Assembly: GCA_044359815.1 (NCBI GenBank)
Contig: JBIKLL010000004.1
Coordinates: 24,244-88,243, forward strand
DNA: 64,000 nt
Source of the DNA: Pseudobdellovibrionaceae bacterium
Lineage (GTDB): Bacteria > Bdellovibrionota > Bdellovibrionia > Bdellovibrionales > Bdellovibrionaceae
Direction: 5' to 3'
Under the pieces are notes generated by a model that saw nothing but the letters and a program-made list of their open reading frames with translations, made no database searches and was not told where the DNA came from. This document shows positions 30,144-44,239 of this stretch, piece after piece; positions within the stretch are counted from its first letter, which is position 1; every line of letters starts with the position of its first letter. Position numbers and translations under genes: made by a program.

Positions 30144-30219
30144 TGGGGTATAGCCAAGTTGGTAAGGCAATAGATTTTGATTCTATCATTCCCTGGTTCG
30201 AGTCCAGGTACCCCATCCA
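30144..30219 (+). tRNA. tRNA-Gln (TTG)
   Basis: Acceptor TGGGGTA/TACCCCA, anticodon arm ATAGA-TTTTGAT-TCTAT, GGTTCGAGTCC T-arm, encoded CCA. Confidence 0.96.
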
Positions 30220-33284: not shown

Positions 33285-35867
33285 ATGACTTTTAACAATC
33301 GACAACATGCGGGCCGACTACTTGGAGAAAAGCTGATCGGCTATAAAAGTTTGAACCCAATTATTCTAGCTCTTCCTCGTGGAGGTGTGCCCGTTGCTGC
33401 AGAAATCGCAACGATTTTAAATGCTCCCCTCGATGTTTTGATTGCTCGTAAAATTGGATATCCATTTCAGCAAGAGTTAGCAGTCGGAGCGCTTAGTGAA
33501 GACTATGAGCCTGTTTGGAGCGAACGAATCCTTTCTCGAACTGGTCTTGAACCCGATGATCTTGGTCGAACAATTTTGTCAGAATCAAAAAAAATCAAAC
33601 AACAGATTGAAGAATTTCGGGACGGACGCGAGCTTCCGTCGACGGCACAAAGGACAGTTATTATTGTAGATGACGGCCTTGCTACAGGTGCAACAGTCAC
33701 TGCGGCAGTTAAATATTTGAAGAAAAGAGGAGCCGCAAAAATCATTGTAGCCGTTCCGATTGCAGCGGCAATCTCTGCAAGACAGCTTAGAGGTAAAGTC
33801 GACGCTCTAATCAGTTTGGAGGAACCAGAGGACCTATTGTCAGTCGGTCAATGGTATGAGGAATTTTCTCAAGTTTCTAATGAAGAGGTTGTTATGATTC
33901 TCAAAGAAAATCAGAAAAGAAACGATGCAAATATAAGTGTCCGAAGTCTAGAAATTCCTGTCGATCAAGCAACCCTCAGTGGGGATCTTACGATGTTTCC
34001 ATCAATGAAAGCTTTGATCATTTTTGCTCATGGCAGCGGTAGCGGTCGCAAGAGTCCACGGAATCAGATGGTAGCAAGTGAGCTCAACAAGGCAGGATTT
34101 GGTACCTTGCTCTTTGATCTGCTGACAGATCAAGAAGCAAAAAATCGAAAAAATGTTTTTGATATCAATTTTTTGAGCAACCGATTGGTTTCTGTCACCA
34201 AATGGCTACGCCAACAACCAGATTTAAAAGTTACCCAACTAGGATATTTCGGCGCAAGCACCGGCGCCGGAGCTGCCATTCAAGCGGCAAGCAAGTTATC
34301 TGGTTCCGATAGCGTGTACGCTATTGTTAGTCGCGGTGGCCGTCCGGATTTAGCGGGTGATGCTTTGAAGATCGTTAAATCTCCGACTCTTCTGTTGGTC
34401 GGAGGCCAAGACTTTGATGTCATTGAACTCAATCGCCAGGCACAGAAACTTTTATTCAATTCAAAATTATCAATTGTTCCAGGGGCTACACACCTTTTTG
34501 AAGAACCAGGCACTCTTGAAGAGGTCTCTCGCCTCGCGGCGCTTTGGTTTAAAGACCATCTTGAATTACCAAAGCTTAAATCGAAATCCAAACAGACTTT
34601 AGATGAGGCCGTTGAGAGCGGAATGATTGGAGTGAGGAATGAAAACGACTTCGATCGACTCATTGAATCTGTAAAAGATGCTCGTGTGGTAATGCTGGGT
34701 GAAGCCTCCCATGGAACTCAAGAATTTTATCAAATAAGAAGCCTTATTTCTAAGCGTCTCATCAAAGATCACGGGTTTAAATTCATCGCTGTCGAAGGTG
34801 ACTGGCCAGACGCTTATCGCCTTAATAAATATATTCAAAAGGGTGAAGGCGGAAATGCTAAAGCTGTATTGATGCACAATCACCGTTGGCCGACTTGGAT
34901 GTGGACTAATGACGAAATCGTAAAACTTGCTGAATGGATGAGGACCGAACGCGCTGGATTTTATGGCTTGGATGTCTATTCTTTTTTTGAATCCATTGAT
35001 GAGGTGGTGAATTATTTAAAGAAAAATAATCTACCCTTGGCACAAGAAATTCAACGGCGCTATGCTTGCTTAGATCCATTTGAGGGCGATGAAATTTCTT
35101 ACGCACGTTCCTTGTTGAAATATCCTCCTGGATGCGAAAATGAAGTGCTGTTAAACCTTCAAAGGCTTCTCGAGCTTCGTGTGAAGGATGTGGCGCAAGA
35201 CGGAGATGAACTTTTTAGCTCTCAACAGAATGCTCGAATTGTTGCCAATGCAGAAACCTATTATCGCGCTATGCTTTCAGGCGATGCCAGTTCCTGGAAT
35301 GTGCGAGATGGACACATGATGGAAACCCTGGATCGCCTTTTAGAAAGAGCTGGCGAAGGAGCCAAAGCCATTGTTTGGGCGCATAACACTCATATCGGTG
35401 ATTATCGAGCCACTGATATGAAAGAGGCCGGCTACATAAATCTTGGAGGACTAGCCCGACAAAGTTATGGAGAAGAAAATGTAGCACTTGTTGGTTTTGG
35501 AACTTATCAAGGTGAAGTCCTCGCTGGATCCGGCTGGGGCCGCCCTGAAGAGATTATGCCTTTGCCCGCAGCTCATGAAGAAAGTTATGAGTATCACTTT
35601 CACAGGGCTGCGCAAAACCACAATCTCAATCAGTTTTATCTCTTACTAGAAAACAAAACTCACACTCCATTTGCACATCGATTGGGACATCGTGCGATTG
35701 GTGTGGTCTATGACCCTCGTCATGAGCGCCGTGGAAACTATGTGCCAACTGAACTTTCAAAGCGATACGATGCCTTTGTTTTTGTAGATCAAACTCATGC
35801 CTTGAAGTCATTACACACGGCTTATGTGCTTGGTGAATTTCCTGAAACTTGGCCGACAGGACAGTGA
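33285..35867 (+). CDS. phosphoribosyltransferase / alpha-beta hydrolase / erythromycin esterase fusion
   Basis: LALPRGGVPV and IIVDDGLATG; FAHGSGS and GASTG; LGEASHGT, AVEGDWPD and WAHNTHIGD. Confidence 0.92.
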   Translation: MTFNNRQHAGRLLGEKLIGYKSLNPIILALPRGGVPVAAEIATILNAPLDVLIARKIGYPFQQELAVGALSEDYEPVWSERILSRTGLEPDDLGRTILSESKKIKQQIEEFRDGRELPSTAQRTVIIVDDGLATGATVTAAVKYLKKRGAAKIIVAVPIAAAISARQLRGKVDALISLEEPEDLLSVGQWYEEFSQVSNEEVVMILKENQKRNDANISVRSLEIPVDQATLSGDLTMFPSMKALIIFAHGSGSGRKSPRNQMVASELNKAGFGTLLFDLLTDQEAKNRKNVFDINFLSNRLVSVTKWLRQQPDLKVTQLGYFGASTGAGAAIQAASKLSGSDSVYAIVSRGGRPDLAGDALKIVKSPTLLLVGGQDFDVIELNRQAQKLLFNSKLSIVPGATHLFEEPGTLEEVSRLAALWFKDHLELPKLKSKSKQTLDEAVESGMIGVRNENDFDRLIESVKDARVVMLGEASHGTQEFYQIRSLISKRLIKDHGFKFIAVEGDWPDAYRLNKYIQKGEGGNAKAVLMHNHRWPTWMWTNDEIVKLAEWMRTERAGFYGLDVYSFFESIDEVVNYLKKNNLPLAQEIQRRYACLDPFEGDEISYARSLLKYPPGCENEVLLNLQRLLELRVKDVAQDGDELFSSQQNARIVANAETYYRAMLSGDASSWNVRDGHMMETLDRLLERAGEGAKAIVWAHNTHIGDYRATDMKEAGYINLGGLARQSYGEENVALVGFGTYQGEVLAGSGWGRPEEIMPLPAAHEESYEYHFHRAAQNHNLNQFYLLLENKTHTPFAHRLGHRAIGVVYDPRHERRGNYVPTELSKRYDAFVFVDQTHALKSLHTAYVLGEFPETWPTGQ

Positions 35868-38216: not shown

Positions 38217-38762
38217 TCAAATTACAGCCATTGAAGTTACCTGGGGACCTTTCTCGCCAGGCTCCTCATGAAATCTCACCCTTTGGCCAATCTTCAAATG
38301 ATTGAAATTCTCATTGGTGATACTGTTTTCGCCAAAATAACATTCACGGCCATTGCTTGTTTCCAAAAATCCAAAGCCTTCTTGGTAAAAGACCTTTGAA
38401 ATCTTACCTTCTTCTGATTGTTGCTCATGAAACTTTGTTTTATGGCGAACAATTCTAACTCTGTCCTGAAGTATACGTTCAGCTGCGTTGAATGAATCTC
38501 CAATGGCAACATAAATATCTCGATGTGTTTCATCTTTAGGATGGTTTCGGTTAACGATGACATCTTCGCCTGGAATAATAAGATGTATTTGAATATGATA
38601 AAGACGATCTGCTTGACGATGTCGATGAGGACATGAAATCGCTACTTCACATCGAACAATGCGGTCAAAAAAGTGCTCAAGCTTTTCAATTCTCTTTTGG
38701 ACCGCCATCCAAACGGCATCAGACTCTGGAAAGTCTAAGAAAGTGATTTGAAATGGAATCAT
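38217..38762 (-). CDS. HPF/RaiA ribosome-associated protein fused to a cold-shock domain
   Basis: PFQITF...DIYVAIGDSF; C-terminal GFGFL...YF...GEKGPQ. Confidence 0.9.
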   Translation of the reverse strand: MIPFQITFLDFPESDAVWMAVQKRIEKLEHFFDRIVRCEVAISCPHRHRQADRLYHIQIHLIIPGEDVIVNRNHPKDETHRDIYVAIGDSFNAAERILQDRVRIVRHKTKFHEQQSEEGKISKVFYQEGFGFLETSNGRECYFGENSITNENFNHLKIGQRVRFHEEPGEKGPQVTSMAVI

Positions 38763-40359: not shown

Positions 40360-40752
40360 TCAATTTATTTTCTCTAGTGCGTGCTCGAGCTGAGTGTCTG
40401 CCTCTTTAGCTAATTTCACTAGATCTTCATCTCCCAAAATTTTCATCATCGCCGTGGGTTTTGCGATTTCAATCGATACTTTTCCTTTGCCCAAATCTCG
40501 AACCACAACATTGCACGGCAAAAGACTGGCGACGTCTGAGTTTTTCTGGAATGCCTCATAGGCAAGGCTGGGCTTGCAAGCTCCCAGTATCACTGTGATA
40601 GGAATTTCTTTATTTATTTTTTCTTTAATCTTTAGGTGGAGGTCGATGCGTGTGAGGATTCCGAATCCTTCGGCCTTCAGCGCGTCCTCGGAACGCTTAA
40701 TGGCATTTTCCACTGAACAAGTGAGCTCTCTTTTAAAACTGATAGTGTTCAT
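40360..40752 (-). CDS. DUF302 domain protein
   Basis: EGFGILTRID, ILGACKP and LLPCNVVV motifs. Confidence 0.92.
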   Translation of the reverse strand: MNTISFKRELTCSVENAIKRSEDALKAEGFGILTRIDLHLKIKEKINKEIPITVILGACKPSLAYEAFQKNSDVASLLPCNVVVRDLGKGKVSIEIAKPTAMMKILGDEDLVKLAKEADTQLEHALEKIN

Positions 40753-40776
40753 TGGTTTCTCCCACTAAAAAATAGA

Positions 40777-41103
40777 TTAGGCGGTTGCTACTTCTCTTGG
40801 TCCTAAGGGCATTTCCATTTTTATTTTCGGCAAAAGCAAATATAAGATACCATTCATATAGACAGTTTTAATGCCCTTCCCCTGAGGCATCATTCTAAAG
40901 ATGGTTTGTCTCTCATGAGAATTTTCAGATTGACCCTCAACCGTGAGTTGACCTTTAGAGGTCAAAATTTCTGTGCCTTGTGCTGGAATCGTGGGAATAT
41001 CAACAGCCACTAAATAGTGCGAGTCTGATTCTGCCAATGAAAACATGGCTGGATTAATTTGTCGAACTGGCTGAACGGCGGCGGGCTGATATTGACTTAA
41101 CAT
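40777..41103 (-). CDS. degenerate Hsp20/alpha-crystallin-like protein
   Basis: ESDSHYLVAVDIP, LTVEG and YMNGILYLLLPK; AGGAG RBS. Confidence 0.65.
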   Translation of the reverse strand: MLSQYQPAAVQPVRQINPAMFSLAESDSHYLVAVDIPTIPAQGTEILTSKGQLTVEGQSENSHERQTIFRMMPQGKGIKTVYMNGILYLLLPKIKMEMPLGPREVATA

Positions 41104-41140
41104 TGAATGCTCCTATATTTGCATATTTTGTAATAGTAAA

Positions 41141-41156
41141 TGCAATGTGCAGGCCA
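41141..41156 (-). promoter_or_regulatory. sigma54-type -24/-12 promoter
   Basis: TGGCCT-GCACA-TTGCA upstream of the leftward stress operon. Confidence 0.7.
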
Positions 41157-41414
41157 AGAGCGTGTGGGGTTTTAGGATTTTTTTGCATTCAGATATTTTT
41201 CAGTGCTGTGGGGTGATTTTCCCCTCTAGTCGTCGCAAATCTCCTCGGGAGATTCATTCCAGATTCAAAAGGTTGGCGATTGCGCTTATGGTCATTTTGC
41301 ATGTGAAGAAATATCTTGGGACTTATTTGCCATTATGAAGGCCAAAGCGTCCCATTTGAAAATAAAAGTAGAATGTTAAATCAAACTAAACGCTACAACG
41401 GCAACTTTTCTTGA

Positions 41415-41430
41415 TGGCACAGAAGATGCT
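41415..41430 (+). promoter_or_regulatory. sigma54-type -24/-12 promoter
   Basis: TGGCAC-AGAAG-ATGCT; predicted start ~41441. Confidence 0.7.
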
Positions 41431-41444
41431 TAACCAGATATCAT

Positions 41445-42248
41445 GTTCGACTGCAGCGATGCTAGTCAGAATTCAAGCGGGTGTAAGCCCCGTCAACAGA
41501 ATCGTCCAGTTGCTGTTGTAGCCTGGATCAATGGGAGGTTGAAAGACTTCCCATATGCTGATCGAAAAAGTTTTTGGCATGTTCGTGTCAAGGATTTGGT
41601 AAATCGGCAGGTTGTAGCGAAAGCGAACCTCAAAAGTTCGTCAGTCTGTGAACGTTCGGAACGAACAACGGGAGACTGAAGAGAGGGCCGAGCCCCTGAA
41701 CAAAGGCGAAGGCTAATATTGTTGGCGAAGAACTGGATATTCGCAGCTGACAACTTCTCTAAGAACGGGAGGACAACATGTCGAGAATGAGTTTTGGTGA
41801 AAGCACGGAACCACTTGTAGGTCGGTGACGTTTCTCTGACGTCAGCAAAAGTGGTTGGACAAGTTAATGATGTCGATTGGTAACAGTCGATAGTGTTAAT
41901 AAAACCAACTGCCAAGCCCATGAGTGGGGCGGATAAGATCGATAAGCTCTGTCAAAGGAGCGAGGATCTTTGGAGTAGGGCTTCTTTGGGTGTCAAAGCT
42001 TAAAGTGGTTTTAATGGTGGTGTTTTTCAGGTTTAACCGCTTGGAGAATGCGAAGGATGAAGTCAACTTTGAAACTTTCTGTGTATGCCCGGAGAATGGC
42101 TTAAGCGGAAAACGAATAAAGGAATGCTTCATTTGAAATGCCAGCTCTTGAGCTGTTCTGGGGAAATCCCAATGGGCAGTTCTTCTTATTAAGTGGCGGA
42201 GCCGCTAGGCGGGATTTTAATCGATACCGTCTAGCGCGCCACCACTAT
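41445..42248 (+). ncRNA. ORF-less group II intron-like RNA
   Basis: Domain V at 42150-42182 (AGC triad, 2-nt bulge, GAAA-type loop); domain VI-like hairpin ending ccAccactAT; 5' GTTCG; domain I-like motifs; no RT ORF. Ends are inferred. Confidence 0.78.
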
Positions 42249-42279
42249 TTTTTTGTCGGAAACCGGATTGAGGGATAAT

Positions 42280-43044
42280 ATGAACACGAAATTTTTCGAT
42301 GGGAAAGTAGTACTCGTTACGGGAGCCTCTTCAGGGATCGGCAAAGCGGCGGCATTGGCATTCGCCCGTGACGGCGCCAATCTCGTGTTAGCCGACACTC
42401 AAGCTGACGGCGGTTCAGAAGTGGCAAGAAAAATAGAGGCCCTTGGTCGGAAAGTTACATTTGTTAGGTGCGATGTCTCCAGCGAAAATGACGTTAAAAA
42501 CTTACTGCAAAAGACTATCGATATGTTTGGGCGCCTTGATTGCGCATTTAACAACGCAGGTATCGAAGGCAAACAAGCTTCGACTTCGGATTGTACCAAC
42601 GAGAACTGGGATCAGGTGATTAATATTAACTTAAAAGGCGTTTGGCTTTGCATGAAGTACGAGATCCCTCAGATGTTAAAACAAGGGGGCGGGGCTATTG
42701 TTAACTGTTCCTCCATTGCGGGTTTGATTGGATTTCCTGGAATCCCTGCCTACGTTGCAAGCAAGCACGGAGTGATTGGCCTGACCAAGACGGCTGCTCT
42801 TGAATATGCTAAATCAAATATTCGAATAAATGCAGTTTGCCCTGGAGTTATCCAGACGCCGATGATCGATCGGTTCATTCATGGTGAAGCCCAGATTCAA
42901 AAACAACTTGTGGATGGTGAACCAATCGGCAGAGTTGGTCAGCCTGACGAAATTGCGCAAGCTGCACTCTGGCTTTGCTCAGATGCGGCGTCTTTTGTAA
43001 CGGGACACCCCATGGTTGTTGATGGCGGCTGGGTAGCTCAGTGA
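42280..43044 (+). CDS. SDR family oxidoreductase
   Basis: TGASSGIG, NNAG, YVASK and VDGG motifs. Confidence 0.95.
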   Translation: MNTKFFDGKVVLVTGASSGIGKAAALAFARDGANLVLADTQADGGSEVARKIEALGRKVTFVRCDVSSENDVKNLLQKTIDMFGRLDCAFNNAGIEGKQASTSDCTNENWDQVININLKGVWLCMKYEIPQMLKQGGGAIVNCSSIAGLIGFPGIPAYVASKHGVIGLTKTAALEYAKSNIRINAVCPGVIQTPMIDRFIHGEAQIQKQLVDGEPIGRVGQPDEIAQAALWLCSDAASFVTGHPMVVDGGWVAQ

Positions 43045-43512
43045 AGCAAGGCCTGCATCTGCAGAAGATGTCAGGGCGCGTCCGTCCATTAGTTTTAGGG
43101 CTATATCCGGATCTCCCCAACACCAAAACAGGTGGGTAAACCATCAATCAGAGAGGGGAATTCGGATTATTTGATAGCCTGACGGCTGTTCAAATATATT
43201 AAGAAATTCGATCAAAAGAACAGGGGCTCTGCCCCTGGACCCCGGCCCTCTCCACCGATGTCCCACCGCTCCGCAGACATCGTATGGAGCCGGCAATTAG
43301 GGTTGCCCGGCTCCATACGATGTCTTCTCCGCTTAACTAAGTTGATGATTTTTCACCCAAAAAACAGTGGGGAGATCCGGATAGACCCAGTTTTAGCAAT
43401 TACAATCTTAGCAGCAGGTCTTCTTTTGGATAAATGGTGGTGGCAAGTCGGTGGAGTGCTCCTGATTGTTTTATTTGTAGAGGCATTTTATCGCTATCGA
43501 ACTTTGGACTAA
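43041..43512 (+). pseudogene. small two-TM membrane protein gene interrupted by a MITE
   Basis: Removing the element and one target copy restores MSGRVRPLVLAITILAAGLLLDKWWWQVGGVLLIVLFVEAFYRYRTLD. Confidence 0.7.
43099..43388. mobile_element. 290-bp MITE (ISL3-like ends)
   Basis: 20-bp TIRs with 18/20 match; 8-bp duplication AGTTTTAG at 43091-43098 and 43389-43396; no transposase. Confidence 0.88.
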
Positions 43513-43723: not shown

Positions 43724-43739
43724 TGGCACTGAGCTTGCT
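43724..43739 (+). promoter_or_regulatory. sigma54-type -24/-12 promoter
   Basis: TGGCAC-TGAGC-TTGCT, a consensus match, upstream of hsp20. Confidence 0.8.
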
Positions 43740-43777
43740 TATCAGTGGTTCAACAACAATCCATAAGGAGGATTATT

Positions 43778-44239
43778 ATGTCTAACGCACTAGAACGCTG
43801 GTTTGATAACAAAAGCCTAAGCCGGTTTCGTGACTTCTCACAAGTTCAGGAATCATTTGATCGTTTATTTAATGAGTTCATGAACGTGAAGAAGACAAAC
43901 GGCATGCAGAGCTTGTCGTTTAGTCCGTCATGTGAAATCGCCGAAGAAGATAATAACTATATTTTAAAGTTTGATCTGCCTGGAGTTACAAAAGATCAGG
44001 TCAAAGTTGAGGCTGACAAAGATCAGCTCACCATTCGCGCCGAGCGAAAAGAAGAAAAAAAGAGTGAATCAAAAAAGAAATATTTATCGGAGATGTATTA
44101 TGGCTCCTACACAAGAAGTTTCACTTTGCCCGGCCCAGTCGATGAAAAGAAGGTTGATGCAAAATTTGAAAATGGAGTTCTAACTGTGACGGTCCCCAAA
44201 ACAGAATCTCTCAAAGCTAAGCAAATTCCAGTTCATTAA
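43778..44239 (+). CDS. Hsp20/alpha-crystallin small heat shock protein
   Basis: DLPGV, YGSYTRSFTLP and AKFENGVLTVTVPK motifs. Confidence 0.95.
   Translation: MSNALERWFDNKSLSRFRDFSQVQESFDRLFNEFMNVKKTNGMQSLSFSPSCEIAEEDNNYILKFDLPGVTKDQVKVEADKDQLTIRAERKEEKKSESKKKYLSEMYYGSYTRSFTLPGPVDEKKVDAKFENGVLTVTVPKTESLKAKQIPVH

Follow-up and report, generated by a model that had tools for sequence, protein, structure and literature searches.

The element described here lies on contig JBIKLL010000004.1, within a stretch of 64,000 nucleotides (nt) that we call the window and whose positions serve as coordinates throughout. At positions 41415-42256 of the forward strand the window very probably contains the gene for an RNA of ~800 nt that descends from a group II intron (Rfam structural class D1D4-4) and has lost both its exons and the intron-encoded protein (IEP). 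The best overall explanation, towards which the evidence in our judgment leans by a little, is that of a domesticated group II ribozyme, promoter-fused and exon-less, that would act as a non-coding RNA (ncRNA) of a stress regulon. The parts of the element are as follows, where D1 to D6 stand for domains I to VI and (+) for the forward strand.

41415-41429 (+): sigma54-type promoter TGGCACAGAAGATGC (TGGCAC-N5-aTGC), with -24 element TGGCAC, -12 element (a)TGC and GG-N10-GC spacing; from sequence and conservation
41443-41447 (+): RNA 5' end A-U-G-U-U, counterpart of the intron GUGYG, at a putative start site; from alignment with the subfamilies
41457-41807 (+): D1, closed by the long-range helix 41457-41475/41788-41807; RF02003 match, and helices 1-21 with compensatory changes
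41505-41510 (+): loop UCCAGU, candidate alpha; pairs with AACUGG at 41731-41736
41731-41742 (+): Id3-like loop, with alpha' AACUGG at 41731-41736 and then the hexamer AUAUUC at 41737-41742, at the position of exon-binding site 1 (EBS1)
41808-41930 (+): D2; helices 22-25, with many compensatory changes
41931-41934 (+): J2/3 linker GGAU, in near-invariant columns between covarying D2 and D3 helices; role presumed from group II anatomy
41935-41970 (+): D3; helices 26-27
41972-42148 (+): D4, 177 nt, without an open reading frame (ORF), with conserved sub-hairpins; helices 28-33 covary
42150-42182 (+): D5, 33 nt, GAGCTGTTC-TGGG-GAAAT-CCCA-AT-GGGCAGTTC, with AGC triad, 2-nt AU bulge and GAAAU pentaloop
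42192-42246 (+): D6-derived hairpin with conserved internal loop CGGARYC/GCGCCA and A42241 opposite C42197; outer and inner stems covary
42247-42256 (+): U-rich tail TATTTTTTTG, with a T-run at 42248-42256; probable tail of an intrinsic terminator
43724-43738 (+), outside the element: second strict sigma54 motif TGGCACTGAGCTTGC, directly upstream of an HSP20 gene (43745-44239; Pfam)

The group II fold and its family

Two kinds of comparison carry the identification. First, the Rfam model group-II-D1D4-4 (RF02003) matches positions 41475-41622 over its full length (model positions 1-138) at 60.5 bits, against a gathering threshold of 49, with an E value of 8.6e-11. The class is given here by its Rfam name only, because we found no open-access paper or preprint that maps D1D4-4 to a named intron class. 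Second, 27 of the 30 distinct copies described below have enough upstream sequence and form our alignment set, on which RNAalifold returns the six-domain group II layout with 222 pairs, 162 of them showing compensatory double changes. For the 219 pairs that lie inside the RNA, 94.9% of the alignment cells hold standard pairs, compared with 35-45% when the partners are slid by 1-3 columns, and double changes occur in 162 of the 219 pairs, compared with 64-90 for slid partners; none of 500 shuffled controls reaches any of the observed covariation measures. The order of the domains is canonical, from D1 to D6, and not permuted. The alignment thus demonstrates strong purifying and compensatory selection on the D1-D2-D3-D4-D5 fold. 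Together, the model match and the covarying six-domain fold sustain the preliminary description of this DNA, which had recognized a group II-derived, ORF-less RNA that interrupts no gene.

Within the fold, D5 varies least: 8 of its 13 pairs are invariant, and its AGC triad and AU bulge are near-invariant, in keeping with the well-formed domain V that had been reported at the outset. Helices of the D6-derived hairpin (35 and 36) show double changes in 13 of 16 pairs, and the Id3-like hairpin (41719-41753) does so in 8 of 8. The pairing of alpha with alpha' (UCCAGU/AACUGG) has five invariant core pairs and no covariation; 92% of its cells pair, versus at most 57% when slid, which is consistent with, and does not prove, a pairing as in group II introns. 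In a permissive search for tertiary contacts G.U matches predominated, and alpha-alpha' was the one pairing retained. D4, which had been described as short and ORF-free, measures 177 nt in the window and contains no conserved ORF across the 27 copies; it is absent in one copy (L007) and partly absent in another (L003).

Some copies are natural short forms. L028 (2896-3419) lacks D2-D4 and has 386 nt from promoter to D5, L007 (1332-2068) lacks D4, and L020 lacks part of D1. A covarying D1 hairpin at 41568-41597 ends in a conserved loop of the UUCG type, GUUCG(U); the resemblance of this loop to the 5' end of the RNA itself, AUGUUCG, is probably a coincidence.

The copies belong almost entirely to one phylum. 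The genome to which the window belongs, which is 91% complete, carries one copy and yielded no maturase domain (GIIM) and no RVT_1 domain. When 40 relatives were searched at the DNA level, six genomes, from several genera and families of the order, proved to carry one copy each, at 69-83% identity. A scan for the D5 pattern in one genome per prokaryote species found 29 stretches, nearly all in metagenome-assembled genomes (MAGs) titled Bdellovibrionales, Pseudobdellovibrionaceae, Bdellovibrio sp., Bacteriovoracaceae, Oligoflexia or Bdellovibrionota, the outlying titles being two of "Proteobacteria", one of "bacterium" and one of "Streptomyces griseus", probably a mislabelled bin. After removal of duplicates there are 30 distinct copies, the window included, nearly always one per genome. 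At one locus of an Oligoflexia MAG (L012:2896-5225; BOLD01000009.1) two copies stand in tandem ~1.46 kb apart, each with its own sigma54 promoter, with an HSP20 gene between them and a CBS gene after the second.

A scan with RF02003 gave matches in 20 of 151 genomes of the phylum and in none of 14 control genomes. The promoter-fused, ORF-less form accounts for 14 of these 20 genomes, two divergent subfamilies included. In the first subfamily (f17, four genomes), the RNA starts with GUGCUUG 14 nt after the TGC, and D5 reads AGCCGUAU...GUACGGUU. In the second (f25, five genomes), the promoter is (T/C)GG(C/T)AC-N6-CTGC and the 5' segment is a small hairpin, with GUGCC in only one member. D5 keeps the AGC triad and the bulge in all three subfamilies; the remainder is too diverged for DNA search. 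The other RF02003 matches are ordinary introns, among them one that starts with GUGCG directly after a terminator, and one genome has three copies at contig ends.

One of these introns, L050 from the same order, resembles the window RNA in its D1 model match, in the order of the six domains, in the AGC triad, 2-nt bulge and class-typical GAAAN pentaloop of D5 (GAAAA in L050) and in its long D6. The window RNA, however, lacks three features of L050: a 443-residue ORF with RVT_1 and GIIM domains in D4, a bulged branch adenosine and a match to the Rfam model RF00029 (45.8 bits in L050). Conversely, the window RNA has a sigma54 promoter and L050 has none. On this comparative evidence, the element is not a decayed intron but a conserved RNA gene, usually single-copy. 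Its aligned homologues are likewise promoter-fused, ORF-less and covarying, rather than ordinary introns that encode a reverse transcriptase (RT) and of which the window would hold an inactive remnant.

The promoter, the ends of the RNA and its presence in RNA libraries

Sigma54 promoters have the consensus TGGCAC-N5-TTGC, and transcription from them is expected to start roughly 11-13 nt past the C of the -12 element. At the element, such a promoter is conserved in all 27 copies with upstream sequence, 24 of which have exactly TGGCA-N7-TGC, two TGGTA...TGC and one TGGCA...CGC. In a seven-genome alignment, conservation begins exactly at the TGGCA of the -24 element and ends past the 3' hairpin, and the flanks are unrelated. 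From the -12 TGC it is 12-14 nt to an R-U-G-U-U that is conserved as AUGUU in 18 copies and as GUGUU in 6, and 13 nt separate promoter and RNA fold in the window. Alignment with the subfamilies, whose RNAs start with GUGCUUG or GUGCCG, puts the intron-equivalent 5' end of the window RNA at A41443. We therefore predict a transcription start within ~41440-41445, at or no more than ~3 nt from that end; given the promoter spacing and the expected start distance, any "5' exon" would have at most ~3 nt. These data agree with the earlier proposal that the RNA starts almost at a sigma54 transcription start, and the homologues, which were to be checked for the same promoter spacing, do share it. The 5' end itself had been placed at GTTCG (41445); those letters are present, but homology favours A41443, 2 nt farther upstream.

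The genome encodes RpoN (one Sigma54_DBD gene) and 11 strong Sigma54_activat genes, none of the 11 on the contig of the window. No sigma70-like promoter better than chance was found upstream of the RNA. Strict sigma54 motifs occur only twice in the 64-kb window, at the RNA and at 43724, and with a chance mean of 1.16 this count is not above chance; the case for the promoter thus rests on its conservation.

At the other end, the RNA appears to finish with the D6-derived hairpin. The letters directly 3' of the long hairpin are TATTTTTTT, and the U-run after the hairpin reads UAUUUUUUU. The hairpin has a fold energy of -30.7 kcal/mol (z -4.5), and in 15 of the 27 copies at least 6 of the 10 nt that follow it are U. 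A simple terminator scan made no call at the U-rich tail, the hairpin loop being above the limit of the scan. The gene that follows in the window, for an SDR protein (Pfam adh_short_C2, E 2e-74), has its ATG at 42280.

The hexamer at the EBS1 position is AUAUUC in the window and AUAUU[UC] in 13 of the 27 copies, and is variable elsewhere. The same hexamer is found with different leaders, which are variable and unrelated to it, and when intron-binding site 1 (IBS1) was sought in cis as the complement of the hexamer of each copy, no consistent column emerged.

The element is also present in RNA libraries, in assembled contigs of 20 metatranscriptome runs from nine studies of freshwater and sediment. 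We aligned the contigs from four of the studies (X1, X5, X9 and X10) to window positions 40700-43100. Those of X1 tile 41461-42266 at 100% identity, across the hairpin and the U-run, with one further low-depth contig in the SDR gene; those of X5 cover 41494-41638 and 41609-42174. The 81 contigs of X9 and the 34 of X10 have 90-100% likeness to the window, and relatives are therefore present in the same communities. In the four runs no contig falls on 40700-41428 or past 42490, nor past 42238 in X5, X9 and X10, limits that we do not use to place transcript ends or to estimate termination efficiency. Conservation, usual single-copy status, structural selection and presence in RNA libraries together agree with the early suggestion that the RNA is domesticated.

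Some X9 and X10 contigs contain skip-joints, of 63-90 nt at variable hairpins and of 315 and 321 nt over D2-D4. We considered these as splicing products and rejected them, as their sides are short and their likeness is 92%; they are probably relatives or deletion variants. The X9 skips of 315 or 321 nt, which span roughly D2-D4 (41816-42146), possibly come from natural short versions of the RNA.

Genes around the RNA

In the window, the divergent genes beside the RNA encode an HSP20-like protein, DUF302, USP and DUF2267 proteins, an S30AE(HPF)+CSD fusion and a CHAD protein, and the downstream genes encode SDR, HSP20, a CBS pair and OsmC (Pfam). Similar families recur among the 123 ORFs that we examined beside the other 26 elements: HSP20 (L004, L010, L012, L029 and L030), a CBS pair (seven loci), USP (three), Host_attach/baeRF12 (four), phosphoribosyltransferase (PRTase; three), BON (two), DUF2267 and CSD+CHAD, with a CSD gene near the RNA in L009. 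Besides the motif at 43724, 143 kb of flanking sequence contain seven further strict sigma54 motifs, mostly 30-60 nt before gene starts, including those of HSP20, baeRF12, PRTase and CBS genes. The RNA thus seems to belong to a sigma54 stress regulon, and the stress induction suggested for it in the preliminary description is plausible from the sigma54 promoter and the islands of stress genes. The gene set presumably resembles dormancy regulons such as the mycobacterial DosR regulon.

Several neighbours deserve mention in their own right. At 33285-35867 (+) the window encodes an 860-residue fusion of phosphoribosyltransferase, alpha/beta-hydrolase and erythromycin-esterase-like domains, which we take to resemble a protein of the mycobacterial dormancy regulon; PRTase genes adjoin the RNA in L010, L028 and L037. 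The fusion of the S30AE ribosome-hibernation domain with a cold-shock domain, at 38217-38762 (-) in the divergent stress operon, could be a partner that binds the RNA. In subfamily f17 (L039:612-896 (-), and also L040 and L043), a conserved gene of the Thiamine_BP/YkoF family (94 residues), with its own ribosome-binding site, comes no more than ~20 nt after the RNA. The related loci L014, L017 and L020 share a conserved protein of ~440 residues, without a Pfam match, downstream on the same strand, and a 103-residue protein, also without a Pfam match, upstream. A tRNA gene lies at 30144-30216 (+) (Rfam, 65.4 bits), and its anticodon loop UUUUGAU suggests tRNA-Gln(UUG).

Possible modes of action and known relatives

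The family likely arose from an intron that ended up right where a sigma54 transcript begins, intron and promoter then becoming fixed as a unit. In the mechanism that we prefer, the activator-dependent sigma54 stress response would switch the RNA on, and the RNA would work as a folded, stand-alone molecule. Its D1-D5 core, which is intact, would act in trans, the exposed EBS1-position loop binding a nucleic-acid target that would then be cleaved by hydrolysis or joined. We hold this trans-acting catalytic role tentatively, at clearly less than an even chance. The fuller proposal, of a regulated catalytic RNA gene that is fired by sigma54 activators and that cleaves nucleic acids of the cell or of foreign origin, or joins to them in a manner like reverse splicing, in a stress or dormancy programme, is possible and rather unlikely. 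As to the chemistry, D1 plus D5 is enough for hydrolysis, according to the relevant part of PMC3753933, and ORF-less class IIC RNAs known as HYERs cleave single-stranded DNA, as reported in a portion of PMC11754743.

A number of observations weigh against the trans-acting mechanism or against the domesticated ribozyme from which it starts. First, the argument for catalysis is drawn solely from conservation of the core. Second, the Rfam model Intron_gpII (RF00029), which represents D5 and D6, has no match in the region at E ≤ 10 and none in the whole genome. D5 was therefore judged by its sequence and by comparison with L050, and the covariance-model check proposed at the outset came out divided, with group-II-D1D4-4 matching and Intron_gpII not. 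Third, the EBS1-position hexamer varies between species, and its target was not found. Fourth, the 5' GUGYG is degenerate (RUGUU) and in f25 is replaced by a small hairpin, so that the 5'-terminal nucleotides are not universally needed. Fifth, the distribution is patchy (6 of 40 relatives), and the RF02003 scan did not find the element in the six near-complete genomes of one genus (g9). Sixth, the transcription start is a prediction, and the contigs attest presence only, not RNA ends, strand or level. Finally, in 15 of the 26 copies with downstream sequence, a same-strand gene of varied identity begins within ~110 nt of the RNA, which leaves a cis role some probability.

Five other explanations have to be weighed. 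In the strongest of them, the RNA would be a non-catalytic scaffold, a group II fold exapted to bind or organize stress-regulon proteins, for example the HPF-CSD fusion, the release-factor-like baeRF12 or CBS proteins, with the catalytic centre kept only as architecture. Several features would suit such a role. D4, which binds protein in ordinary introns, keeps covarying hairpins without an ORF, the D6-derived hairpin has its conserved internal loop, f25 has lost the 5' splice-site nucleotides, and proteins that bind RNA are encoded nearby (S30AE+CSD in the window; CSD in L009). The high abundance that is typical of large, ornate ncRNAs would also fit. A scaffold does not explain so readily, however, that D5 is the most conserved segment, with triad and bulge retained in all three subfamilies, and L007 does without D4 altogether. 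We consider a purely structural role unlikely, without its being far-fetched.

Second, the RNA could act in cis, as a long 5' leader of the stress gene that follows (SDR in the window), with control exerted by termination at the D6-like hairpin or by a self-cleavage that releases the mRNA. The 15 same-strand genes, each with its own ribosome-binding site, could be read in this way; they encode CBS (L012b, L016, L028 and L037), HSP20 (L004, L012a and L029), USP (L007), SDR (the window) and six unnamed proteins. So could the Thiamine_BP/YkoF gene, which always follows the RNA of f17 in the three loci that reach that far, and the X1 contig that crosses the hairpin and the U-run to 42266. But a convergent gene follows 8 of the 26 copies, and 706 nt without a gene follow another. 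The downstream gene is not conserved, an SDR gene adjoining only one of the 26 other elements (L003), where it stands upstream and divergent. Moreover, a U-rich tail, probably that of a terminator, follows 15 of the 27 copies, the same kinds of stress genes have sigma54 promoters of their own elsewhere, and no 3' splice site is conserved. A cis-acting leader is thus improbable. The particular form first suggested, a splicing-dependent leader of the SDR gene, finds no support, given the rarity of that neighbour, the eight convergent genes and the lack of a 5' exon to ligate.

Third, the adenosine of D6 or the 3' end of the RNA could attack its own 5' end, releasing a leader of 0-3 nt or pyrophosphate and leaving a stable, end-protected lariat or circle. 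Conventional splicing itself can probably be set aside, because the RNA has no 5' exon and no branch site. For a lariat, the predicted transcription start hardly shifts relative to the intron-equivalent 5' end, and A42241, kept in 24 of the 27 main-family copies, occupies a D6 position analogous to that of the branch adenosine of L050 (GCGCC-A-CCAC-UAU versus UUU-A-CCC-UAC). However, in L050 that adenosine is a textbook single bulge, 7 nt from the 3' end, whereas A42241 forms a 1x1 A.C mismatch, or faces a U with which it can pair in some copies. The D6 of f17 has a bulged U instead, and that of f25, a subfamily which also lacks a GUGYG-like 5' end, is without a bulge and resembles a simple terminator. 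Nothing is conserved after the hairpin in the aligned copies, and no back-joint was reported in the contigs of the four runs, which drop rare forms. The domain VI-like hairpin with an A eight nt from an AT end, as first described, therefore stands in so far as a hairpin is present at 42192-42246 and A42241 precedes the AT at 42247-42248 by eight nt, but the A is in a mismatch and the AT end is not conserved. The lariat or circular RNA that had been built on it finds little favour in these data, and we give it a slim chance.

Fourth, an ordinary ORF-less mobile intron, decaying or mobilized in trans, could have come to lie behind the promoter by chance. ORF-less bacterial introns do exist (described in part of PMC4424553), the phylum has introns of this Rfam class that do encode an RT, and one pair of copies, in L012, is in tandem. 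Such an intron is nevertheless very unlikely here: the element is single-copy in a genome without RT or maturase, it shows massive compensatory change at 69-83% identity across genera, its promoter belongs to the conserved unit in three subfamilies, no IBS matches were found, and it occurs in RNA-library contigs. Last, a leaderless small-protein gene starting at 41443, suggested by an RTG at the RNA 5' end in 25 of 27 copies (ATG in 19, GTG in 6) that opens a 78-codon frame (41443-41679) in the window, is practically negligible, since the frames span 7 to 78 codons (median 18), the full 78 being attained in 2 of 27 only, and the same nucleotides form covarying helices.

The domesticated, exon-less ribozyme that we favour can be compared with several known RNAs. 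The GIR1 lariat-capping ribozyme is a group I self-splicing-intron ribozyme domesticated for a non-splicing job, in that case within a eukaryotic twin-ribozyme intron and with a 3-nt lariat cap as its product. The window RNA belongs to a different ribozyme family, and for it a lariat is not supported. HYERs are reportedly multi-copy elements that are still propagating. Like the window RNA they are ORF-less group II RNAs, and the portion of PMC11754743 that concerns their targets proposes that they act on non-exon sequences via the exon-binding loop. They are assigned there to class IIC, whereas the window RNA is of D1D4-4 type, with an AGC triad, a full EBS1-position loop and alpha'. Unlike a HYER, the window RNA is also single-copy, is served by a regulated promoter of its own and keeps a conserved genomic context, and its catalysis is a prediction.

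Among ORF-less introns proper, C.te.I1 of Clostridium tetani resembles the window RNA in having no IEP and in residing in a genome without any IEP, as described in part of PMC4424553. It and the cyanobacterial ORF-less copies treated in the same passages are true introns, however, with exons and splicing, whereas the window family is exon-less, promoter-fused and conserved across families of its phylum. According to that part of the source, bacterial group II introns without an ORF are rare and almost always coexist with relatives that encode an IEP, and derivatives that cannot move do not last. Circularly permuted group II introns (bioRxiv 10.64898/2025.12.30.696962 and PMC5737381, in the parts that bear on them) are another natural, non-canonical ORF-less bacterial derivative with unusual RNA products, but there the domain order is permuted and back-splicing yields circles, whereas the window RNA runs canonically from D1 to D6 and has no exons. 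OLE, ROOL and GOLLD are, in the sections of PMC5737381 and PMC3413148 on these RNAs, large, structured, patchily distributed and abundant, with biochemical function not known and, for OLE, a link to stress; the window RNA differs in its clear ancestry in a known ribozyme, whose catalytic domain it keeps. In the main text of open-access papers and preprints, we found no earlier account of a group II RNA that is promoter-fused and exon-less, nor of any such RNA in Bdellovibrionota.

Group II introns of bacteria generally count as selfish retroelements, and their non-mobile derivatives are said, in the part of PMC4424553 on this subject, to be rare and short-lived. The promoter-fused family is the opposite: it has no protein, no exons and its own activator-dependent promoter, it is under strong structural selection across several families of the phylum, and it occurs in freshwater metatranscriptome assemblies. 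If its core is catalytic, it would be a natural group II ribozyme recruited to a trans-acting role in the cell, a host-serving counterpart of the HYER ribozymes, which are engineered or selfish. It would then offer a bacterial parallel to the step from group II intron to trans-acting spliceosomal RNA that is postulated for the origin of the spliceosome and has recently been mimicked by HYER tools. If the RNA is a scaffold only, it would be a new class of large ncRNA with a traceable origin and a defined regulon (sigma54; HSP20, CBS, USP, baeRF12 and PRTase).

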